Origin: Candidatus Hydrogenedens sp.
GTDB lineage: Bacteria; Hydrogenedentota; Hydrogenedentia; Hydrogenedentales; Hydrogenedentaceae
DNA: 64,000 bases
Direction of reading: 5' to 3'
NCBI GenBank assembly: GCA_035378955.1
Contig: DAOSUS010000001.1
Span: 20,580 to 84,579 of the forward strand
Shown: positions 29,469 through 57,491 of the stretch, in pieces
Numbering within the stretch: the stretch's first letter is position 1
Layout: the number at the start of each line of letters is the position of its first letter
The notes under the pieces: generated by a model
What the model saw: only the letters and a program-made list of their open reading frames with translations
Databases searched by the model: none
What the model was told of the DNA's origin: nothing
Program-made: the position numbers and the translations under genes

Positions 29469-30040
29469 CCTATAGGAGATAAAGAATACATAGATTTTAG
29501 AGTCCTCATAATACCATAAAGGATACAAAAACACGAATGAAGAAGGAAAGAAAATCTCTTCCAACTTGACATACACTATTTTTTCTCTTTGTAGATTGGA
29601 TTTCAATTGGTCAAAAAATTATCACCACGAATTACACAAATAGACACGAATAAAAACAAATGGAAAAAAATCTATCATCCATTATTTCATTTAATGAACG
29701 GAACCGTCCTCGCTTCGGGTATTTTTAATTGGATAAATCTTTCAACCACAAAAGATACAAAGATTTTGCACAGAGTTCACAATGTAGGAGCGAAATATGT
29801 TTCGCTCGCACCTTCTCTGTGGTTTTTGTGTGAAATTTCCTTCGTGTCCTCTGTGATTAATTCTTTTTTACTACGAAGAGCACAGAGCTCTTGCACAAAG
29901 TGTACAAAGATGAAAGATCCCGAAGCAGGGATGCTTCATCTACAATCTTCTTGTCCTTATAGTCTTGTCAGGGCATGGCATGCCATGCCCTTACGATTGG
30001 AAAGAAAGAAAGTATAAATCTGCTACCTATCTCCTATAGG
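29469..30040. repeat. Region bounded by a perfect 12-bp inverted repeat (CCTATAGGAGAT at 29469-29480 / ATCTCCTATAGG at 30029-30040), enclosing a ~100-bp repeat element and a 20-bp palindrome
   Basis: Read directly from the sequence. The CCTATAGG core is itself palindromic. Confidence 0.5.
29971..29990. repeat. 20-bp perfect palindrome GGGCATGGCATGCCATGCCC
   Basis: Exactly self-complementary; GC-rich within an AT-rich intergenic region. Confidence 0.8.
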
Positions 30041-30108
30041 TTATCAAATAGGATATCTCTACTAAAACGGAAAGGAAATTATAAATCTATTACCTATGTT
30101 CTATTACC
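30014..30108 (+). promoter_or_regulatory. Array of direct repeats containing TACCTAT upstream of the hdr promoter
   Basis: ATAAATCTGCTACCTAT (30014-30030) and ATAAATCTATTACCTAT (30071-30087); tandem TTACCTATGTTCTA x2 (30081-30108). Confidence 0.45.
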
Positions 30109-30179
30109 TATGTTCTATAGAATTTATTTATTACGATATTTTGTTTTTAATATTTTAAATATAATTATTTTATATTTAT

Positions 30180-30209
30180 TTGACAATATATAGATAATAT
30201 TACTATAAT
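30180..30209 (+). promoter_or_regulatory. Candidate sigma70-type promoter of the hdr-mvh operon
   Basis: TTGACA (30180-30185), an 18-bp spacer, then TATAAT (30204-30209), about 65 nt upstream of the hdrC start. The region is AT-rich, so a chance match is possible. Confidence 0.3.
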
Positions 30210-30273: not shown

Positions 30274-30873
30274 ATGGCGCAAGAACTAACCACTAAATCA
30301 GTATTATACGAAAGACAGTTAGATGCAAATTTTGCCAACCTAATACAATCGATGCCTGGAGGCGAAAATTTGAGAAGGTGTATTCAATGTGGGACTTGTA
30401 GTGCTACTTGCCCATTTTCCCATGTTATGGATTATACACCTCGCAAGATTATCTATTTAATTAGGGAAGGCTTTAAAGAAGAAGTCATGTCCAGTTTTAC
30501 ACCGTGGCTTTGTGCAAGTTGTTTTTCATGTAGAGTCCGCTGTCCAAAGGAAATTAAAATAACGGATTTAATGTATCTAATAAAGAGAGAAGCAATAAAG
30601 GATAACCATTATCCCCAAAAAGCACCTATTGTGCTTCTAACAAAAGAATCGGTGAAAATGATTCATAAAAACGGTAGAATTTCTGAAAGTTATTTAATGG
30701 GAATTGTTCTACTTAAAGTTAGTTTTCTAAAGTTGCTTCGCATGTCGGGTTTAGGATTAAAAATGCTGTTAACAGGTAGATTTACCTTAATCCCAGAAAA
30801 AATAAAAAGTCGTGGAGAACTAAAGAAAATATTAGCCTTCTCAAATAAAAAAGTAGAGGAAAACAGTAAATGA
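30274..30873 (+). CDS. hdrC: Heterodisulfide reductase subunit C-like (2x[4Fe-4S] ferredoxin domain)
   Basis: Two CxxCxxCxxxCP motifs (CIQCGTCSATCP and CASCFSCRVRCP); first gene of a translationally coupled six-gene operon. Confidence 0.8.
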   Translation: MAQELTTKSVLYERQLDANFANLIQSMPGGENLRRCIQCGTCSATCPFSHVMDYTPRKIIYLIREGFKEEVMSSFTPWLCASCFSCRVRCPKEIKITDLMYLIKREAIKDNHYPQKAPIVLLTKESVKMIHKNGRISESYLMGIVLLKVSFLKLLRMSGLGLKMLLTGRFTLIPEKIKSRGELKKILAFSNKKVEENSK

Positions 30874-31739
30874 AATACTTTTACTATCCAGGTTGCTCTT
30901 TAAGAGGTATGGGAAAGGCATATGAAGAATCATGGTTAAAAGTGTGCCAAAAAATAGGTCTTCAATTAGAAGAAGTTAAAGATTGGAATTGTTGTGGTTC
31001 TACAACTTACCTTGGGTTCGATGAAATTAAATCATTAGTTTTGGTTTCAAGAAACCTTGCTATGTTAGAGAAAGAAGGGGGTAGTGAGGTTATTACACCC
31101 TGTATTGCTTGTTATTATCTCTTTAATAGGACAAATCATAATTTAAGGGACTATCCTCAATTAAAAACAGAAACAAATAAGATGTTACAAGAAGTAGGAT
31201 TAACCTATTCTGGAAATGTCAAAGTTAGGCACCCTTTAGATATCTTAGTTAATGATGGCTGGATGGAGAAAATATCTCAAAACATAGAAAAGCGACTGGA
31301 GCGTTTTAAAGCTGTTTGTTATTATGGCTGTCAACTTCTCAGACCCTATTGCGAGTTTGATAACCCGAGCAATCCTAAAAATATGGATATATTAGTTGGC
31401 CTCACAGGAGTTGATGTTTTAGATTATCCATTAAAGACTAAATGTTGTGGAGCAATTATAACTTCAAATATTCCCGAAAAAGGACTTGAACTTGTTTATG
31501 TTTTATTAAAGGAAGCAAAGAAAAGAAATGCGGATTTTATCGTGGTTACATGTCCTTTATGTCAATTTAATTTAGAATTTCAGCAAGAAAAGATTATGAA
31601 AATATATGAGGAAGATATTGGGTTACCCATATTGTATTACACACAAGTTCTGGGGTTGGCAATGGGTCTCTCCTTAAAAGAGTTAGGAATTAGACGTTGT
31701 TTAACACTAACACCAGAATTTGAGCGAGCTTTAATATGA
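30870..31739 (+). CDS. hdrB: Heterodisulfide reductase subunit B-like (two CCG domains)
   Basis: Cys-rich CCG motifs (NCCGSTTY..., CYYGCQ...KCCGA); 4-nt overlaps on both sides. Confidence 0.8.
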   Translation: MKYFYYPGCSLRGMGKAYEESWLKVCQKIGLQLEEVKDWNCCGSTTYLGFDEIKSLVLVSRNLAMLEKEGGSEVITPCIACYYLFNRTNHNLRDYPQLKTETNKMLQEVGLTYSGNVKVRHPLDILVNDGWMEKISQNIEKRLERFKAVCYYGCQLLRPYCEFDNPSNPKNMDILVGLTGVDVLDYPLKTKCCGAIITSNIPEKGLELVYVLLKEAKKRNADFIVVTCPLCQFNLEFQQEKIMKIYEEDIGLPILYYTQVLGLAMGLSLKELGIRRCLTLTPEFERALI

Positions 31740-33727
31740 AAACAAATAACAAGGAAATACGAATCGGTTTTTATATCTGTCATTGTGGGACAAATATTGC
31801 AGGCGTAGTAGATGTAGACAAAGTAAGAGAGTTTATAGTGAAAAAAGATAATGTTGTGGTGTCACGTAACTACAAATATATGTGTTCTGACCCAGGTCAG
31901 GAGTTAATACAAAAAGATATTCAAGAACATAGGTTAAACAGAATTGTTGTGGCGTCCTGCTCGCCATTACTTCATGAAAAAACTTTTAGAAATACTTTAG
32001 AAAAAGCAGGTTTAAATCCATTCTATCTTCAAATGGTTAATGTTAGAGAACATGTAGCTTGGGTTCATTCAGATAATGAAAAAGCCACTGAAAAAGCAAA
32101 GGCTTTGTGCAATGCAGCAATAAATAGGGTTAGGCATAATAAACCTCTTGAGAAAAAAAGAGTATCATTTCACCAAGATGTTTTAATTATAGGAGGGGGT
32201 ATTGCAGGCATACATTCTGCTTTGACATTAGCCTCTGGTGGCAAGAAGGTTTATCTCGTTGAGAAAAAGCCTACCATTGGTGGACACATGGCAATGTTCG
32301 ACAAAACATTCCCTACTCTGGACTGTGCCGCTTGCATTTTAACTCCTAAAATGTCTGCCATTAAAGAAAATAAAAATATAATACTCTGGACCAATTCAGA
32401 AGTGATAAAGATAGAAGGATATGTGGGAAACTTCAAAGTTACGATTAAGAGAAATCCTCGATATGTTAGGGAAGATTTGTGTATAGGATGTGGGCAATGT
32501 GTAGAAAATTGTTTCTATAAAGAGGCAAAATTTCCCGATGAGTTTAATTTAGGCTTAAGCAAGCGAAAACCTATTTACATACCTTTTCCACAAGCCATAC
32601 CCAATTCCGCCATAATTGATGATAAGACATGCATCCATTTCAAGACGGGAAAATGTAAACAGATGTGCCTATCTGCCTGTGAACGCAATGCTATTGATTT
32701 CAATCAAAAAGAAGAGTTAAGAGAAATTCAGGTTGGTGCTATTATTGTTGCCACCGGCTTCAAAACATACGATCCTATAAAGGAGCCCGAATATGGTTAT
32801 GGAGTTTATCCTAATGTATATACTTCACTTGAAGTAGAAAGACTGATTAATGCGTCGGGTCCCACTGCCGGTGAGGTAATATTAAGAGATGGGACAAAAC
32901 CCAAATCAATTGGTATTATTCATTGCATTGGTTCACGCAGTGAAAAAGCCAATAAATGGTGTTCTCGTGTTTGTTGTATGTACTCTTTGAAACTTGCCTA
33001 TTTACTAAAAAAACATACTCATGCAGAAATTTACAATTTCTATATTGATATGCGTACCCCGGGTAAAATGTATGAAGAATTTTATGATAGGCTTTTAACA
33101 GAGGGGGTACATTTTATCCGTGGGAAGGTTGCCGAAGTAACAGATATTTCCCTTGTGAAGGAAGAAGAGGGAAAACTAATATTAAGAGTTGAAGATACTT
33201 TAGCAAGTGTCATTAGGAGAATCCCTGTAGATATGGTAGTTCTATCAGTAGGTTTGGAACCCTCCGAAGACACACAAAAACTCGCACATATATTAAACAT
33301 AGGTCTTTCCGCTGAAGGCTTTTTCCAGGAAAGGCACCCTAAATTGGCTCCTGTCAGTACCTTTTCAGAGGGCATTTTTATTGCTGGATGTTGTCAAGGA
33401 CCTAAAGACATCCCTGATACCGTAGCGCAAGCAGGTGCTTCTGCTGCGGAGGCAATGGCTATGATTGATGCAGGATATTTTGAAATAGAACCCATTACTG
33501 CTTATGTGCTGGATGAATTTTGTAGTGGATGTAAATCCTGCATTAATATTTGTCCTTACTCTGCTATTTCTTATGACGAATCGAAGAAAAAAGTATTTGT
33601 AAATGAGACTTTATGCAAAGGATGCGGTACTTGTAGTGCTACTTGTCCGAGTGGTGTTATGAAACAAAATCTTTTCGAGGATGAACAAATATTGAATGAA
33701 ATTGAAGGACTTCTTGTGTATGAGTGA
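31736..33727 (+). CDS. hdrA: Heterodisulfide reductase subunit A-like flavoprotein (FAD plus multiple FeS clusters)
   Basis: FAD-binding motif VLIIGGGIAGIHSA; several CxxCxxCxxxCP ferredoxin motifs; the N-terminal Cys cluster typical of HdrA. Confidence 0.85.
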   Translation: MKTNNKEIRIGFYICHCGTNIAGVVDVDKVREFIVKKDNVVVSRNYKYMCSDPGQELIQKDIQEHRLNRIVVASCSPLLHEKTFRNTLEKAGLNPFYLQMVNVREHVAWVHSDNEKATEKAKALCNAAINRVRHNKPLEKKRVSFHQDVLIIGGGIAGIHSALTLASGGKKVYLVEKKPTIGGHMAMFDKTFPTLDCAACILTPKMSAIKENKNIILWTNSEVIKIEGYVGNFKVTIKRNPRYVREDLCIGCGQCVENCFYKEAKFPDEFNLGLSKRKPIYIPFPQAIPNSAIIDDKTCIHFKTGKCKQMCLSACERNAIDFNQKEELREIQVGAIIVATGFKTYDPIKEPEYGYGVYPNVYTSLEVERLINASGPTAGEVILRDGTKPKSIGIIHCIGSRSEKANKWCSRVCCMYSLKLAYLLKKHTHAEIYNFYIDMRTPGKMYEEFYDRLLTEGVHFIRGKVAEVTDISLVKEEEGKLILRVEDTLASVIRRIPVDMVVLSVGLEPSEDTQKLAHILNIGLSAEGFFQERHPKLAPVSTFSEGIFIAGCCQGPKDIPDTVAQAGASAAEAMAMIDAGYFEIEPITAYVLDEFCSGCKSCINICPYSAISYDESKKKVFVNETLCKGCGTCSATCPSGVMKQNLFEDEQILNEIEGLLVYE

Positions 33728-34196
33728 ACAAAACTGGGAACCTAAAATCATTGCGTTTTTCTGTAATTGGTGTACTTATACCGCTGCAGACCTGGCAGGA
33801 GTATCTAAGTTATCCTATGCCCCCAATGTGAGGATAATTAGAGTAATGTGCTCAGGTAGAGTAGACCCTCAATTTGTATTGTCTGCCTTTGCGAATGGAG
33901 CCGACGGCGTTTTAATCGGGGGCTGTCACCCTGGAGATTGCCACTATAGCGAGGGAAATTATAAAACTCTCCGAAGAATCTCTTTGCTAAAGAAAATGTT
34001 AACTCAATTTGGAATTGAATATGATAGGGTGCGACTGGAATGGATATCCGGTGCAGAAGGTGAAAAGGTAAAGACTGTTATAAACGAAATGACAGACAAA
34101 ATAAGAAAATTAGGACCACTAAATCTACCTGAAAAATTTATTACCTGGGATAGAGAATTAGAAAAACTAGACAGAGAGTCTGAATATATAAATTGA
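33720..34196 (+). CDS. mvhD: Methyl-viologen-reducing hydrogenase delta subunit
   Basis: MvhD/FlpD pattern (IIAFFCNWCTYTAADLAG...RVMCSGRVDP...GGCHPGDCHY). The start is likely the ATG at 33720, giving an 8-nt overlap with hdrA. Confidence 0.8.
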   Translation: MSEQNWEPKIIAFFCNWCTYTAADLAGVSKLSYAPNVRIIRVMCSGRVDPQFVLSAFANGADGVLIGGCHPGDCHYSEGNYKTLRRISLLKKMLTQFGIEYDRVRLEWISGAEGEKVKTVINEMTDKIRKLGPLNLPEKFITWDRELEKLDRESEYIN

Positions 34197-34208
34197 GGAA
34201 ATAGAACA

Positions 34209-35186
34209 ATGTCTTCAAAGCCGAAAGTAGCATTTTATTGGTGTGCTTCTTGTGGAGGTTGTGAAGAAGCAGTAGTTGATTTGGCAGAAGATATACTTGA
34301 AGTTGTAAAGTTAGTAGACATTGTATTTTGGCCAGTTGCCATGGACTTTAAAAAGAGAGATGTGGAAGCATTACCAGATAAATCAATTAATATTGCATTT
34401 ATTAATGGGGCAATTCGAACCTCCGAACAAAAAGAAATTGCTCATTTATTGAGAGAAAAGTCCCATTTAATTGTAGCCTTTGGCTCTTGTGCCTGTTTTG
34501 GTGGCATTCCTGCTCTTGCTAACCTCTACAGTAAGTTTGAAGTTTTAAATGATGTTTATATTGAGTCTCCAACTGTTGATAACGATACTAAATTGCTCCC
34601 TCAAACTACATCTGCTGATAATAATGGAAAACAGTTAGAATTACCTAAATTTTATAACCAGGTAAGGGCTTTAGATGAGGTCATTTCGGTAGATTATTAC
34701 CTGCCGGGTTGTGCTCCAACACCGAAATTAATAGCTAATGCTGTAAATACATTACTCGGTGGTAATTTGCCAGCTGCAGGTTCTACATTACTACCGGACA
34801 TAGCCCTTTGTGAAGAATGCCCGAGAAAAGACTCTAAACCCACAGACCTTTCGATTACAGAATATAAAAGGATTTGTGAAAATCTTGTGGACTCTGAAAA
34901 ATGTTTATTGGCTCAAGGGTTTCTATGCTTGGGTCCCGTAACTCGTGGTGGCTGCGAGGCTCTATGTATAAATGGAAATATGCCTTGTACAGGATGTACT
35001 GGTCCCACATCGAGAATAGTAGACTTTGGCGCAAAAGCAGTATCTATGTTTGCATCGTTGTCCAGTGGAAAAAACGAAGAGGAAATAGAGAAAAACTATG
35101 CACAAATAATAGACCCTGTAGGCACTTTTTATAGATATCATCTTTCAAAAAGTTTATTAAAAGGAAAACTTGAGAGGGGAATATAG
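34209..35186 (+). CDS. mvhG: [NiFe] hydrogenase small subunit (MvhG-type)
   Basis: N-terminal Cys cluster WCASCGGCEE and a further FeS Cys set; it sits immediately upstream of the large subunit. Confidence 0.8.
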   Translation: MSSKPKVAFYWCASCGGCEEAVVDLAEDILEVVKLVDIVFWPVAMDFKKRDVEALPDKSINIAFINGAIRTSEQKEIAHLLREKSHLIVAFGSCACFGGIPALANLYSKFEVLNDVYIESPTVDNDTKLLPQTTSADNNGKQLELPKFYNQVRALDEVISVDYYLPGCAPTPKLIANAVNTLLGGNLPAAGSTLLPDIALCEECPRKDSKPTDLSITEYKRICENLVDSEKCLLAQGFLCLGPVTRGGCEALCINGNMPCTGCTGPTSRIVDFGAKAVSMFASLSSGKNEEEIEKNYAQIIDPVGTFYRYHLSKSLLKGKLERGI

Positions 35187-35189
35187 AGT

Positions 35190-36662
35190 ATGGAACAACA
35201 ACTAAAAAGGAAAGTCTCTATTGACCCGATTACTCGTTTAGAAGGGCATGGAAGAATAGAAATATTTTTTGATGATAATAAAAATGTCGAAAAAGCATAT
35301 TTACAGATTCCTGAGTTAAGAGGTTTTGAAAAATTTTGTGAAGGTAGACTTCCGGAAGATATGCCCCAAATAACTTCGAGAATTTGTGGTGTGTGTCCAA
35401 CCGCACATCACATAGCAAGTGCAAAGACGCTTGATAAATTATTTAATGTAGAGTCTACTCCTACTGCGAAAAAAATAAGGGAACTCGTTTACAATGCATT
35501 TATGTTTGAAGACCATGCTCTTCACTTCTACATTCTCGGAGGTCCTGATTTTATTGTTGGCACCGGCGCACCAAAAGAATTAAGAAATGTAATTGGTGTA
35601 ATTCAAAAAGTAGGAACTGATATTGCAAAACAACTAATTTCTATTCGAAAGAGAAATCGGGAACTTATTTCTTATTTAGGGGGTAAAGTAATACATCCCG
35701 TATTAGGTTTACCAGGTGGAGTGGCTAAAGGTATTGATGAAGATGAGTTATCAAAAATTAAGCAATTGGCTCAGGATAACTTAGAATTTGCCCTTTTTAC
35801 TCTTGACACATTTAAGCGAATCATACTTGAAAACCACGAGTATTTAAATTTAGTTACTTCTCCGGCATATACTCATCAGACTTACTATATGGGGATGGTA
35901 GACTCTGGAAATAGAGTAAACTTTTACGACGGAATGATAAGGGTTGTAGACCCAAATGGAAAAGAGTATGTAAAATTCGACCCTCGGGAATACCGAAACC
36001 ATATAGGTGAACATGTAGAGCCTTGGACATATATAAAGTTTTGCTATCTTAAAAATGTTGGTTGGAAAGGCTTCAAAGATGGCATAGACAGTGGAATTTA
36101 TTGCGTAGCCCCACTTGGGCGATTAAACGCATGTGAAAGTATGGCTACTCCTAAGGCACAACAGGCTTATGAAGAGTATATAAAAACTTTAGGTAAACCG
36201 GTGCATTACACACTTGCTACTCATTGGGCACGGATTATTGAAATAATATATGCAAGCGAACGAATGATAGAACTTGTAAATGACCCTGAGATAACGGGAA
36301 AAGATTTGAGAAATATTCCTTCTAAAGTGGGAGAAATTGGAATTGCAGCAGTTGAAGCCCCTAGAGGCACTTTATTCCACCATTATGAAACAGACTCAAA
36401 AGGTTTACTTAGGAAAGTCAACCTCATCGTGGCTACACAAAATAACGCGGGGAGAATATCTCTTAGTATAGATAAATCTGCAAAGGAGTTAATGAAAAAT
36501 GGGGATGGGAGTATTACTGAGGAACTGCTCAATAAAATAGAAATGGCTTTTAGAGCCTATGACCTCTGTTTTGGCTGTGCTACCCATTACCTTCCAAGCA
36601 AACTTCCTTTCATAATTATCCTGCGAAATTCGCAAGGAAAAATAATAAAGAGAATTTTCTAA
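35190..36662 (+). CDS. mvhA: [NiFe] hydrogenase large subunit (MvhA-type)
   Basis: N-terminal RxCGxC (RICGVCPTAHH) and C-terminal DLCFGCATH Ni-binding motifs, with a C-terminal extension for endopeptidase processing. Confidence 0.9.
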   Translation: MEQQLKRKVSIDPITRLEGHGRIEIFFDDNKNVEKAYLQIPELRGFEKFCEGRLPEDMPQITSRICGVCPTAHHIASAKTLDKLFNVESTPTAKKIRELVYNAFMFEDHALHFYILGGPDFIVGTGAPKELRNVIGVIQKVGTDIAKQLISIRKRNRELISYLGGKVIHPVLGLPGGVAKGIDEDELSKIKQLAQDNLEFALFTLDTFKRIILENHEYLNLVTSPAYTHQTYYMGMVDSGNRVNFYDGMIRVVDPNGKEYVKFDPREYRNHIGEHVEPWTYIKFCYLKNVGWKGFKDGIDSGIYCVAPLGRLNACESMATPKAQQAYEEYIKTLGKPVHYTLATHWARIIEIIYASERMIELVNDPEITGKDLRNIPSKVGEIGIAAVEAPRGTLFHHYETDSKGLLRKVNLIVATQNNAGRISLSIDKSAKELMKNGDGSITEELLNKIEMAFRAYDLCFGCATHYLPSKLPFIIILRNSQGKIIKRIF

Positions 36663-36886
36663 AAAATCATTCCTTAATGTTTCAAAATTATAAACCTAAA
36701 TAGGAGCGGTAAGAAAAAACAGCGCTTTTTACCTTCAATTCTCTGCTTTTACCTCTCCAATTCTATAAAAAATAAAACATAGGTAACAGGTTTATATTTT
36801 CTCGGATAATGAATCCAGTTTACATTCCCACTCAAACTTAAATAAAGAATAAAGTAGGTATTACCTATAATCTATAAAGATTCTTG

Positions 36887-55036: not shown

Positions 55037-57268
55037 ATGGAGAAAATTCGGAACAACGGTTATGTCTGCTTAATTCTGATTATCTCAATTTCTCTTTTTC
55101 CCACAAATGTTTTTTCGGATGAAGCAAAACCCCAAACCGATGAAAAAACAAACGAATACTATCAGACCCTTTTGCAAGCAATAAATCTCATCAACTTTTC
55201 CCTCAATCGAATCTGTTCTACTTCAAGCATTTCTATGATAAAAGCAGAATATACCTATATCCTTAATAACATTGATTTAGATAAAGTTAATTTTCCTGAA
55301 GAAATAAAAAATACTTATCAAGAGATTATCAACTCCCTTTCCGAATTGAAAACCGCAAAAGGAAAACTATCAGAAGGAATAGACCTTTTAGAAAGGGAAC
55401 ACTATTTACGACTGGATAAACCGTCTTCTGAATTAGTGCATTCTTTGATTAATCTTCAAGAAATGAATAGGGATACCCGTCATTCCCTAATGAATTGTAG
55501 CAAAATACTATATTATCGCTGTTTGTTTGATAACCGTTTTTATAATTACGAATCGTGTAGTTACCCGCCTGATGAACTGAATGAAGAGTTTAGAAGAACT
55601 GTTTCAAGTGTTAAAAAAGAATGGATGGAAGTAATAAAACCTTATTTTTATAATCAAATTTTACCAAAATTACCCGATGCCTTGTTGGTAGAAGATAGAA
55701 TGGTTCAGTTGCTTTTAAGGAATTTCTATGCAAAGGATTTTGGTTTATGTCTGCAATCGTTTAATGACATGCAAAAGACAGAAAAGGGGATAGTTCAAAC
55801 ACCCATTTATTGGTTGTTATATGCCTTTTCAGCCAGCACAGGGAAAAATAATGAAGTAACGGAAATATGTATGGATAAGTTTTTGGAATGTTACGAAAGC
55901 GTGTTGAAAAAAGATATCTTTCTTGAAGTTATTTATATTCGTAAGTTAGAACACCTCCTCCAAAAAAATCCAGAGTTAAAAGATGAAAGTATTAATCAAA
56001 AAATGCTGGCTATTGCAGAAAATGCCTATAAATATGTTAATGACAAAAACATACTTTATAAAATCTACTTAGCCGCAATATTTTACAGACTAAATAAGAT
56101 GGAAAAAACTCAAGAAATATTATCAGGAATAAACCCGGAATTTGTAGATAAGGAAAATAGAGCTGAGTATGGATTTTATCAACTTGCCATGTATGATTTA
56201 AATCATGGTTATGATGTTTTTGACCATATGAGATTATTGGCAAAAATCCTGGAATGGGAACCTGTAAATCTTGAACAGTTAGAAGAAATAAAGGAGGCTA
56301 AAATTCCAGAAGCGTTTCTTTACTTAGGGCGTAAATATATCTATGGAAAGGAAAATAAAGACAGGGATAAAGGATTGGCATATATGGAAGAAGCCAGCGA
56401 GTTGGGAAGTGAAGAAGCAACCTCTTATCTCGCGTATAGATATATGTATGGTTATCTACCGGGAATGAAAAAAGACGAAAAGAAAGGTTTAGCATACTTT
56501 CAAAAGCTGGCAGAAAAAGGAGACCAGAAAGCCCTCTGCGAGATTGGTAGATGTTACTATATAGGAATTGCTGTTCCACAGGATTTTAATAAAGCAAAAG
56601 AATACTTTGAGAAATCTGGAAAAGATGGCAAATATTGGTTAGGATTGATGTATAGCAAAGGTGACGGTGTTCCACGAGATTATCAAAAAGCATACGAATG
56701 TTTTTATGATGTAATACGAGACGATCTTTCTTATGGTGGATATCAAAATCATTATAGTTCTTATAGTCATGAAGCAAATATGGCTATTGGAGATTTGTAT
56801 TTTACCGGGAAAATTGATGTTGTAAATTACATAAAGGCTATGGAATATTATCAGAGAGCAAGTTCTCTCCCCGAAGCACAGGTAAAAATGGGTTACATTT
56901 ACGAAAACGGCTATGAAATACAGAAGAGTTATACAAAAGCCAAAGAATGTTATGAAAAAGCAGGAAGTCAAGGAAATTTAGAAGCAATACTTCGTTTAGG
57001 CGATTTTTATCTTTATGGATTGGCAGGAAAAAAAGATTATGTATTATCTTATGCACATTATACACTGGTAATACGATTAGTAAATGAAGGAAGTGACCAT
57101 CCACAAGCCAAAGAATTAGCCCAACAAGCAGAACAGACACGCAAAAAACTCCTACCCAATATCTGGAATTTCTGGTCAGGACTAACTCCCGAGGAAATCA
57201 AAGAAGCCGAAGAACTCGCCAACTCCTGGAAGCCCTACTCCATCCTCACAAGAAAAAAAATTAAGTGA
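55037..57268 (+). CDS. Secreted Sel1-like repeat (SLR) protein
   Basis: Signal peptide; repeated Sel1 motifs (GLAYMEEASELGSEEATSYLAYRYMYG, GLAYFQKLAEKGDQKALCEIGRCYYIG, etc.). Confidence 0.75.
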   Translation: MEKIRNNGYVCLILIISISLFPTNVFSDEAKPQTDEKTNEYYQTLLQAINLINFSLNRICSTSSISMIKAEYTYILNNIDLDKVNFPEEIKNTYQEIINSLSELKTAKGKLSEGIDLLEREHYLRLDKPSSELVHSLINLQEMNRDTRHSLMNCSKILYYRCLFDNRFYNYESCSYPPDELNEEFRRTVSSVKKEWMEVIKPYFYNQILPKLPDALLVEDRMVQLLLRNFYAKDFGLCLQSFNDMQKTEKGIVQTPIYWLLYAFSASTGKNNEVTEICMDKFLECYESVLKKDIFLEVIYIRKLEHLLQKNPELKDESINQKMLAIAENAYKYVNDKNILYKIYLAAIFYRLNKMEKTQEILSGINPEFVDKENRAEYGFYQLAMYDLNHGYDVFDHMRLLAKILEWEPVNLEQLEEIKEAKIPEAFLYLGRKYIYGKENKDRDKGLAYMEEASELGSEEATSYLAYRYMYGYLPGMKKDEKKGLAYFQKLAEKGDQKALCEIGRCYYIGIAVPQDFNKAKEYFEKSGKDGKYWLGLMYSKGDGVPRDYQKAYECFYDVIRDDLSYGGYQNHYSSYSHEANMAIGDLYFTGKIDVVNYIKAMEYYQRASSLPEAQVKMGYIYENGYEIQKSYTKAKECYEKAGSQGNLEAILRLGDFYLYGLAGKKDYVLSYAHYTLVIRLVNEGSDHPQAKELAQQAEQTRKKLLPNIWNFWSGLTPEEIKEAEELANSWKPYSILTRKKIK

Positions 57269-57329
57269 GTATAAAATATCATTCACAAATAAGATAGAAA
57301 AATAAGGAAGTGAGAGCGTAAAATCTTTC

Positions 57330-57467
57330 GCCCCATTCCCCCCATTCGTCCCATAGTCCCCTATGTCCCATGTGTCTCATAGTCCCATTCGTCCCACAGT
57401 CCCATCAGTCCCATTCGTCCCATGGTCCCATTCGTCCCACAGTCCCATAGTCCCATTCGTCCCATAT
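57330..57467. repeat. GC-rich tandem repeat of a degenerate 8-9 bp unit (GTCCCATTC / GTCCCACAG / GTCCCATAG), about 16 copies
   Basis: Read directly: ...CCCCATTCGTCCCATAGTCCC...TCCCATTCGTCCCACAGTCCCATAGTCCCATTCGTCCCATAT, in the convergent intergenic region. Confidence 0.8.
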
Positions 57468-57491
57468 ATACCAATGATCGAATATCTGTGG

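Follow-up and report, generated by a model that had tools for sequence, protein, structure and literature searches.

Small inverted-repeat insertions with one gene, or none, between complementary ends are known from several bacterial settings. The intervening sequences (IVS) of 23S rRNA genes, as in Coxiella burnetii and Leptospira, are insertions of ~430–450 nt with complementary termini of ~28 bp and one small open reading frame (ORF; S23p, PF05635); they are held to be selfish, sporadic and horizontally spread, and ORF-less versions exist (PMC4990558). Here, we describe a palindromic element found in two intergenic spacers of a 64,000-nt stretch of Candidatus Hydrogenedens sp. (contig DAOSUS010000001.1; hereafter, the window), and relate it to arm sequences found in many phyla and to genes of the orphan GxxExxY family (PF13366/TIGR04256). 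We regard it as reasonably probable that the window copies, designated copy 1 and copy 2, are non-autonomous members, resembling miniature inverted-repeat transposable elements (MITEs), or else relics, of a family of cassettes in which such arms enclose a GxxExxY gene.

Like the MITEs Correia/NEMIS of Neisseria, RUP, Nezha and Chunjie, the elements are small (100–170 nt), non-coding, multi-copy and intergenic, often lie near gene ends, carry terminal inverted repeats that can form long hairpins, and have longer, ORF-bearing relatives with the same ends. Their size is below ~600 bp, they hold no transposase ORF, and their copies are dispersed. They differ from MITEs in that no target-site duplication has been seen, in that their ends consist of tandem 8–10-nt sub-repeats and span at least 12 phyla, and in that the longer relatives encode a PD-(D/E)XK GxxExxY protein of ~125 aa and no recognised transposase. 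Among the three origins named in the original prediction (small RNA gene, MITE, and recombination or integration scar), the MITE therefore came closest, with size, lack of an ORF, inverted-repeat ends, copy number and ORF-bearing relatives in its favor and the missing target-site duplication against it.

The GxxExxY cassette shares the overall anatomy of the IVS, its arms of 27–40 nt enclosing either nothing or the ~125-aa ORF. IVS, however, lie within rRNA helices and are excised by RNase III, whereas the elements described here lie between protein-coding genes, have yielded no RNA-level signature and, where they have an ORF, encode PF13366 and not PF05635; the window contains no rRNA match. 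Repetitive extragenic palindromic (REP) sequences and bacterial interspersed mosaic elements (BIMEs), which are associated with REP-flanked genes for RAYT (Y1) transposases, are likewise extragenic palindromes arranged in mosaics, downstream of genes, that break assemblies. Two accessory hairpins of the window, the center of copy 1 and one upstream of copy 2, fit the REP signature of a 20–40-nt palindrome after GT[AG]G, whereas the arms have no 5' GTAG, consist of ~40 nt of tandem boxes and not of a single 20–40-nt palindrome, and are common to many phyla, REP sequences being species-specific.

Free-standing homing-endonuclease genes of the Seg/Mob type occur in phages, and I-Ssp6803I is a homing endonuclease with a PD-(D/E)XK fold. 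GxxExxY genes can be likened to them by predicted fold and gene position: each is a small nuclease-fold ORF that is inserted, co-oriented, among conserved genes of the host and is retained by related genomes at one and the same intergenic site. Classical free-standing homing-endonuclease genes differ in having neither palindromic arms nor ORF-less hairpin derivatives. Integron attC sites, too, are imperfect palindromes directly 3' of ORFs, and their RYYYAAC/GTTRRRY cores resemble the outer cores of the arms (AATTAAC/GTTAATT). Here, however, an arm lies on either side of the ORF, cassettes do not form arrays of one orientation, intI is absent from the vicinity, the neighbors are housekeeping operons, and an unsystematic look gave no evident extrahelical-base asymmetry. 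We therefore rejected an attC identity, of which only the 5-nt TTAAC/GTTAA resemblance holds.

Palindromic arms across phyla and around GxxExxY genes

The repeat formed by copies 1 and 2 is genuine and far above chance. The originally quoted segments, 29825–29865 and 61480–61520, are present as given and identical at 36/41 positions, and the alignable unit extends further to the left, to ~165 nt (29701–29865 versus 61356–61520, 116/165 identical ungapped, 70%). The two copies align in blastn with 72% identity (E = 7e-20) and in a 220-nt MAFFT alignment with a mean column identity of 79%, nhmmer returned E-values of 1e-49, and a comparison of the intergenic regions with each other scored 86 bits, whereas 100 shuffles averaged 24.6 bits and did not exceed 31.9. 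The earlier figure of ~75–80% identity over ~100 nt was right as to similarity and somewhat high as to degree (67/100 ungapped), and the count of two copies was too low, as a third, degenerate element lies directly 3' of copy 1 (29870–29969). Each copy is an imperfect palindrome of 120–165 nt without an ORF of the transposase type, composed of a left arm with CACAAAG/CACAGAG boxes, a center, and a complementary right arm ending in GTGRTTAATTC. The inverted CACAGAG...CTCTGTG segments that had been pointed out in copy 1 are indeed present, as part of these ~40-nt arms, which are complementary at ~29/40 positions in each copy.

The terminal 20-mer of the copy 1 right arm is a motif that recurs across phyla. 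One genome per GTDB species was scanned with the right-end pattern GTGTCCTCTGTGNTTAATTC, yielding at least 126 matches at no fewer than 120 loci, where only a handful would be expected by chance (a rough estimate from database size and pattern length). The matches listed represent at least 12 phyla: Acidobacteriota, Verrucomicrobiota, Planctomycetota, Chloroflexota, Gemmatimonadota, Hydrogenedentota, Fibrobacterota, Bacteroidota, Nitrospirota, Spirochaetota, Abditibacteriota and several Pseudomonadota; the cultured carriers among them include Limnoglobus roseus and Pedobacter ginsenosidimutans. Their general form is (A-rich)TTAAC-CACAGAGGA-CACAGAGRR-CACAGAG, 40–120 nt, CTCTGTG-YYCTCTGTG-TCCTCTGTG-GTTAA(T-rich), with the flanks A-rich on one side and T-rich on the other. 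In most loci listed, a left and a right arm lie 50–150 nt apart, about three boxes (27–30 nt) pair, and different elements usually have unrelated cores. In 83 arms whose outer end the pattern left free, that end reads T(56)T(55)A(55)A(73)C(69) followed by CACAGAGG, and the same architecture occurs with other box sequences (CGCAAAG, CACGGAT, CACGAAG and more).

Arms frequently adjoin gene ends. An opposite-strand ORF of at least 90 aa ends between −7 and +60 nt from the arm in 71/126 matches listed, and in 24 of those 71 the TAA inside TTAACC is its stop codon. The adjacent proteins of the matches listed do not cluster with one another, and a common neighboring gene family was accordingly rejected; by eye, we take sampled neighbors to be UvrC, thiolase, PurF, ProC, MutS, ArgC and TrpC, among others. 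In most of the 8-kb loci there is just one element, or the elements are far apart, with housekeeping genes alongside. Separately, Opitutales metagenome-assembled genomes (L010, L017, L103, L116) contain dense, nested, palindromic intergenic mosaics of many 7–9-nt tandem repeats, with units such as CACAGAGG, CGCAAAG, CACGGAT, GATCACGAT, GGCACAAAG (eight times) and AGGAATT..., which points to a much more elaborate arm system in Verrucomicrobiota.

The right-arm 16-mer is also present on at least 120 IMG/VR contigs, where the arm is solitary in 115/127 matches listed. Among these 115 solitary arms, 70 follow closely, in the purine-rich orientation, on an ORF stop (mostly at 5–8 nt, or inside TTAA), and in 42 an ORF begins on the same strand beyond the arm, in most cases 0–15 nt away. 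These positions suggest that the purine-rich arm can act as an intercistronic ribosome-binding spacer. Individual viral or proviral contigs (L214–L333, e.g. L291, L293 and L247) carry up to 3–4 solitary arms each in stop-to-start spacers; read in frame, arms give LTTEDTE.. or INHRGHR.. and can yield spurious N-terminal extensions in gene calls.

When arm pairs are spaced more widely (300–630 nt), they often enclose one ORF, which in seven loci (L034, L046, L062, L066, L068, L072 and L106) encodes a GxxExxY protein of ~125 aa (TIGR04256, E = 8.5e-45; PF13366 PDDEXK_3, E = 4e-43) with a D...ExK signature in its alignment. The association held in the reverse direction, in 80 metagenomic loci chosen by GxxExxY similarity alone and hence unbiased as to arms. 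An inverted repeat spans the ORF in 53 of the 76 loci with enough flank (130 nt each side; score ≥30 versus shuffle maxima of 17–27), and 55/77 loci have at least four CRCNNAG boxes in the two flanks (mean 5.1, versus 0.47 in an equal length of ORF). The boxes are specific to position as well as orientation: the adjoining 140 nt average 2.7 sense boxes on the upstream side and 2.9 antisense boxes on the downstream side, compared to 0.2–0.6 in farther bins. Although the box sequences vary between cassettes (CACAGAG, CGCAGAG, CGCCGAG, CGCAAAG, CACGAAG, CACGGAG and others), the box skeleton and the TTNACC/GGTNAA ends are kept. The cassette start codon lies directly 3' of the left arm, whose boxes contain GAGG/GGAG. 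Annotated genomes of cultured isolates have this arrangement too, within operons. In Bacteroides finegoldii, the left side reads radA-TAG-GTTCACC ACAGAGGA CGCAGAGGA CACGGAGG...ATG[GxxExxY]TAA, followed on the right by ...CTCTGTGA CCTCTGTGT CCTCTGTGGTGAA...ATG(next gene), and in Sphingomonas parapaucimobilis the order is fabD-[arms+GxxExxY]-fabG-acpP-fabF. The arm subtype of the window, two boxes, (T)ATTG and two more boxes, is also the one that surrounds GxxExxY in L066 and L210. Arm pairs may enclose other ORFs as well: a small ORF, Trm112/YcaR-like by eye only, lies between arms at L098 1738–2130, and a 91-aa ORF without a family match at L048 2670–3080.

A syntenic Acidobacteriota spacer, between a thiolase gene and a 599-aa ORF that we take to be an acyl-CoA dehydrogenase, contains both forms of the element. 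Its flanking proteins are 55–87% identical between loci. The cassette is complete in the spacers of L034, L068 (which has one more hairpin), L140, L141 and L144–L146, whereas in L024 the spacer, although syntenic, differs: it is ~170 nt long and consists of a four-box left arm fused to the thiolase stop and a decayed right arm, with no ORF. ORF-bearing and ORF-less forms thus alternate at one orthologous spacer, as two states of a single element.

PF13366 is listed as "function unknown, multiple transfers" (PMC3424549). For GxxExxY, an AlphaFold2 model from a shallow 30-sequence alignment reached a mean predicted local distance difference test score of 46.8, a PDB sequence search gave no match, and PADLOC returned only marginal Cas4 similarity. 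In the literature we found no description of the arms, nor of any GxxExxY genomic context. An NCBI family note presumably links GxxExxY to IVS-type proteins.

Copies and strain variation in Candidatus Hydrogenedens

Within this genus, the palindromic elements are multi-copy and part of a repeat mosaic that turns over. In addition to the two full copies and one degenerate copy in the window, nhmmer found at least 15 matches in seven loci of Ca. Hydrogenedens terephthalaticus (AWNW01), where the 20-nt right end occurs 9 times without mismatch; the copies are often in tandem or head-to-tail, with three elements in the ~900-nt rpsF leader alone (L094). The AWNW01 copies are interleaved with GTAG hairpins, a small hairpin unit that we call module C, CACGAA-type direct repeats, GGGAC(N3-4) tandem arrays and the motif TATAAATCTGTTACCTATGT. 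A comparison of two strains of the window organism (L340 versus L341) revealed a 148-nt indel ~5 kb to the left of the window start (locus coordinate ~16720), in which a GTCCCAT array is combined with module C and a GTAG hairpin; a 40-nt hairpin, ACAGAAGGAAAACACAGACAAGtATGTCTGTGCTACATTA, stands at either boundary. The indel looks like a repeat-mediated gain or loss, and the mosaic thus turns over within the species.

Copy 2 lies at a break in strain similarity. Window positions 60123–61548 are 99.2% identical to AWNW01000038 (L080), with 99–100% identity through the element and 100% in its right arm, and identity is lost 10–28 nt past the right end of the copy (~61530–61548). This level of identity assigns the window to Ca. 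H. terephthalaticus or a close neighbor of it. Beyond this point, AWNW01 carries a predicted 440-aa ORF, by look a putative DegT-type aminotransferase, instead of ~600 nt of AT-rich DNA and the two methylase genes of the window. Two independent metagenome assemblies (ENA, JGI) stop at 61673/61674, and database look-ups found neither methylase protein on record elsewhere. Taken together, the methylase locus looks like a strain-specific island. The earlier notion of a recombination or integration scar is thus partly apt, and for copy 2 only, which marks the edge of a strain-variable segment. At copy 1, one contig (L006) breaks inside the element.

The modules of the window elements are listed in Table 1. 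Module C forms the left third of the 165-nt alignable unit; it also precedes left arms in L076, L094, L064 and L067. The center of copy 1 is a GTAG hairpin of the same kind as that upstream of copy 2, and the pattern of GTAG plus palindrome has 2 matches in the window versus 0.03 expected; the same hairpin is central in elements of L094 (three times), L064, L076 and L041. The center of copy 2 (61440–61469) differs from that of copy 1 and has no hairpin. The degenerate element shares the architecture of copy 1, and tandem abutting elements are also found in L094 and L041. Further 3', a perfect palindrome and an adjoining module have homologs, GTAG-GGGCACGGCATGCCGTGCCC plus ACGATTGGG, in L067 and L064.

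Table 1. Coordinates of repeat modules and flanking genes in the window.
Feature	Position	Strand	Description
SSF symporter gene	27567–29135	−	left of the copy 1 spacer
Module C, copy 1	29701–29739	+	small hairpin (GAACCGTCCTCGCTTC), T-run and degenerate arm end (..TTGGATAAATC); aligns with 61356–61394
Copy 1 left arm	29745–29784	+	ACCACAAAAG-ATACAAAG-ATTTTG-CACAGAG-TT-CACAATG; four CRCNRAG-type boxes
Copy 1 central hairpin, REP-like	29784–29807	+	GTAG GAGCGAAA tatg TTTCGCTC (whole: GTAGGAGCGAAAtatgTTTCGCTC)
Copy 1 right arm	29815–29865	+	CTCTGTG-G-TTTTTGTG-TGAAATTTC-CTTCGTG-TC-CTCTGTG-ATTAATTC
Degenerate second element abutting copy 1	29870–29969	+	left arm ACTACGAAGAGCACAGAGCTCTTGCACAAAGTGTACAAAG, center hairpin 29910–29939, decayed right arm 29940–29969; repeat family D5
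Perfect 22-nt palindrome	29970–29991		AGGGCATGGCATGCCATGCCCT; then module ACGATTGG..TATAAATCTGCTACCTAT (29993–30046)
hdrC-hdrB-hdrA-mvhD-mvhG-mvhA	30274–36662	+	right of the copy 1 spacer
PASTA/GLUG protein gene	59018–61021	−	left of the copy 2 spacer
GTAG hairpin upstream of copy 2	61301–61328	+	GTAGAGGCGAAA aatc TTTCGCCTCTAC (whole: GTAGAGGCGAAAaatcTTTCGCCTCTAC) and T-run; same module as the copy 1 center
Module C, copy 2	61356–61394	+	GAAGCGTCCTGGCTTC, T-run and ..GTAGTTAAATC
Copy 2 left arm	61400–61439	+	ACCACAAAG-AACAAAAAG-TCCCTG-CACAAAG-TC-CAAAAAG
Copy 2 right arm	61470–61520	+	CTCTGTG-TC-CTTTGTA-TAAAATTTC-TTTTGTG-TC-CTCTGTG-GTTAATTC
Two N6_N4 DNA methylase genes	62143–63808	+	right of the copy 2 spacer

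Origin and role of the elements

The paired arms of 55 cassettes align over ~37 nt, with 84.5% complementarity. Transition-type mismatches on the ORF strand comprise 60 G·U and 69 A·C (p = 0.48), and with no G·U excess, neither strand appears to be under selection to pair as RNA. For the seven local copies, RNAalifold returned a consensus of −5.7 kcal/mol with a covariation term of +1.25 (a penalty), the pairs being nearly invariant and a compensatory change occurring in 1/17 consensus pairs, in a single sequence. The RNA structure and covariance check that accompanied the original prediction thus yielded a weak consensus fold and essentially no covariation. Copy 1 by itself folds as a long hairpin (−43.5 kcal/mol, z = −2.5 versus shuffles). 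At the Rfam gathering score there were 0 matches in the window and 20 related loci; at E ≤ 1, a search over both spacers found none on the elements and three weak, unrelated matches elsewhere: the locus-1 spacer has one, and the other two fall near the accessory hairpin and module C that precede the copy 2 arms. A search for tRNA and tmRNA likewise found none. The lack of Rfam matches and of G·U bias, with essentially no covariation among nearly invariant pairs, argues for DNA-level inverted repeats and not for structured RNA.

These observations are consistent with the window copies being non-autonomous, MITE-like or relic members of the GxxExxY-cassette family, as is their position between divergent genes, where a role in termination or as a 3' untranslated region has no obvious client. 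The arms are inverted arrays of 2–4 boxes of 8–10 nt, reading CRCNRAG(G) or its complement and ending in TTNACC/GGTNAA. The ORF-bearing cassette sits wedged tightly between a host stop codon and the next start codon, its purine-rich arm probably doubling as the ribosome-binding region of the ORF, and the window copies are of the ORF-less form, probably as hairpin relics or MITE-like derivatives. In Ca. Hydrogenedens, the elements are multi-copy and pile up with GTAG (REP-like) hairpins and further short repeat modules in strain-variable, long intergenic regions. They may spread as selfish DNA by means of their DNA-level inverted repeats, with a GxxExxY-type nuclease, or another enzyme, presumably acting in trans.

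Several observations weigh against this interpretation. As to the local copies, copy 2 folds no better than shuffles (z = −0.85), the window arms are only ~72% complementary, and the 148-nt indel, the only one seen in this species, consists of neighboring modules and not of arms. We found no GxxExxY gene in ~116 kb of Hydrogenedens DNA, made up of the window, the 10 kb to its left and ~42 kb of AWNW01 loci, and this inspected DNA thus offers no candidate mobilizing enzyme. As to the protein, GxxExxY is to our knowledge no known transposase, and its nuclease activity is a prediction only. Protein clade does not co-vary with box type (CAC/CGC; 57.8% versus 56.8% identity), which argues against a simple protein-end recognition code. 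An identical GxxExxY protein, P0085, occurs on 75 contigs always with the same neighbors; such a constant genomic context gives no sign of recent transposition. As to mobility itself, no transposition of any arm element has been observed, and we found neither a clean empty site nor a target-site duplication, the flanks instead continuing the inverted repeat (TTCACC...GGTGAA). TTAA, being itself palindromic, is uninformative on target-site duplication, and a TTAA target or duplication was rejected as the non-palindromic ends are inverted (TTCACC/GGTGAA). Finally, the tight association with stop codons in other phyla and the long-term retention at one operon spacer could reflect a host function.

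More tentatively, and as a possibility rather than an expectation, the arms and the GxxExxY ORF may together constitute an undescribed cross-phylum class of selfish mini-cassettes, a free-standing PD-(D/E)XK nuclease gene with its own palindromic ends. The purine-rich arm would then serve as a ribosome-binding site with multiple Shine-Dalgarno motifs and the complementary arm as its fold-back or DNA-hairpin partner; the cassette would settle stop-to-start inside housekeeping operons and phage gene blocks and leave behind thousands of ORF-less hairpins and solitary arms, those of the window included. If so, this would be the first functional context for the large orphan family PF13366/TIGR04256, and would suggest a wider category of insertion to which the 23S rRNA IVS elements belong as a particular instance. 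Tandem-box arms that span phyla and are tied to an orphan nuclease gene appear to be a new variant of known selfish insertions.

It is unusual for a 20-nt non-coding motif to be near-identical in at least 12 phyla and in many IMG/VR contigs, and this one ties together gene-end hairpins, solitary purine-rich intercistronic spacers and the orphan GxxExxY family, which has up to thousands of metagenomic variants; annotation usually treats the three apart or overlooks them. If mobile, the cassette would be a new vehicle of gene-sized selfish DNA inside operons; if not, a widely conserved intercistronic device. In either case, the elements break assemblies, create spurious ORFs (e.g. LTTEDTE peptides) and extend or supply the stop codons of housekeeping genes, and merit a model in repeat and RNA/DNA-motif libraries. 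For the window, the suggestion of a small RNA gives way to hdr and methylase leaders that are repeat dumps of a palindromic element family.

The alternative that fares best, although we consider it unlikely, is a transcript hairpin useful to the host: a (possibly bidirectional) terminator, a 3'-end stabilizer, or an RNase III processing or insulator site at gene ends, kept for its function and not through mobility. The proximity of arms to ORF ends in the 71 matches, the use of the TAA in TTAACC as a stop in 24 of them, the A-rich and T-rich flanks (copy 1 is followed by TTCTTTTTT) and the better-than-shuffled fold of copy 1 all point in this direction, as does the thiolase spacer, which has kept an element across species. 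RNase III moreover cuts the 28-bp terminal stems of the 23S rRNA IVS (PMC4990558). Both window copies, however, lie between divergent genes with nothing upstream to terminate, and cassettes are also found within operons, fabD-fabG for one, in which termination would be detrimental. Pairing has no bias for G·U over A·C on the sense strand, the local family has almost no compensatory changes, and a generic terminator needs no sequence identity across phyla. A terminator scan did not call the main hairpin, only 61301–61328 and 61356–61371 looking terminator-like; together with the divergent spacers, this led us to reject an intrinsic terminator.

Less likely still, and in our view improbable, is that the arms are operator or iteron arrays bound by a DNA- or RNA-binding protein, which would co-regulate the hdr-mvh and methylase loci, or a portable module for ribosome binding or translational coupling. 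Arrays of binding sites would explain the tandem 8–10-nt boxes with their invariant CRC..AG skeleton and the placement of both window copies in the same orientation upstream of plus-strand operons, yet no candidate regulator is known and the neighbors in different phyla are unrelated housekeeping genes, unlike a regulon. A ribosome-binding module would account for the solitary purine-rich arms of IMG/VR, 5–8 nt after a stop and 0–15 nt before a start, and for cassette ORFs that begin directly after an arm whose boxes contain GAGG/GGAG. The window copies, by contrast, are separated from the next start codons downstream by 409 and 623 nt, a distance too great for ribosome binding, and their boxes (CACAAAG, CACAGAG-T) have no GG.

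A pair of paralogous small non-coding RNA genes, or of cis-regulatory RNAs, as the original prediction had envisaged, is highly improbable. The copies are intergenic with hairpin potential, the second-best-conserved block adjoins a T-run, and module C and the 61301–61328 hairpin are terminator-like. Against this stand the missing Rfam match, even at E ≤ 1, the weak consensus fold, the single compensatory pair of 17 and the shuffle-like fold of copy 2; no curated covariance model places the elements in an Rfam family or among structured small RNAs, and this identity was rejected. Nor does a promoter-terminator pair frame the element, whose center is replaced between copies and whose relatives enclose protein genes and not a conserved RNA core. 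Chance, or a single ancient segmental duplication limited to two loci, might be read from the two full copies of modest identity (~70%) in the 64 kb, and has practically no probability left: shuffles reach at most 32 bits against 86, and the earlier proviso that only these two copies exist gives way to a large family with many copies in AWNW01 and other phyla.

By inspection, we also dropped a sigma-70 or extended −10 promoter, a CsrA or Hfq sponge, a dif/Xer site and a DnaA box (TTATCCACA versus TTAACCACA), each for a misfit of spacing, context or orientation.

Neighboring features and other repeats

Both copies lie in spacers of ~1.1 kb between divergently transcribed genes. The sole ORF spanning copy 1 (29607–30017) matches no Pfam family, and copy 2 lacks an equivalent. 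A perfect sigma-70-type promoter match (TTGACA, 18 nt, TATAAT) is located at 30180–30209, 65 nt upstream of the hdrC start; as it is downstream of all repeat modules, the repeats are probably outside the hdr mRNA leader. A 31-nt inverted repeat, TATAAATCTATTACCTATGTTCTAT, 87% complementary between 30075–30105 and 36771–36801, brackets the entire hdrCBA-mvhDGA operon. Its motif is duplicated in tandem at 30086–30118 and recurs 3' of repeat arrays in L094 (upstream of rpsF), L067, L064 and L015. Possible roles are the delimitation of a segment that moves or inverts and a function as promoter or operator.

Upstream of copy 2, a promoter-like site (61223–61250, 9/12 match) precedes the terminator-like hairpin 61301–61328, whose 12-bp stem is terminator-like on both strands, and the two could frame a plus-strand RNA of ~75 nt. 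The sole Rfam match in this region (61223–61337), STnc40, is insignificant (E = 0.046) and lies on the opposite strand.

Two direct-repeat families, D2 and D3 (59591–60628), fall within the PASTA/GLUG protein gene and are most likely coding repeats of its protein domains, unrelated to the intergenic elements. A further array of ~16 tandem 8/9-nt units, (T)TCGTCCCA / AGTCCCAT, occupies 57327–57469 (TRF score 103–185), in the convergent spacer between a Sel1-repeat gene (55037–57268) and a ceramidase-like gene (57492–58904). It reads GGGAC(N3-4) on the minus strand, an array type that is multi-copy in Ca. Hydrogenedens (L067 294–363, L064) and also present within the 148-nt indel of L341; the GGGA/GGA-rich minus-strand repeats could act as a sponge for an RNA-binding protein or simply be another repeat module.

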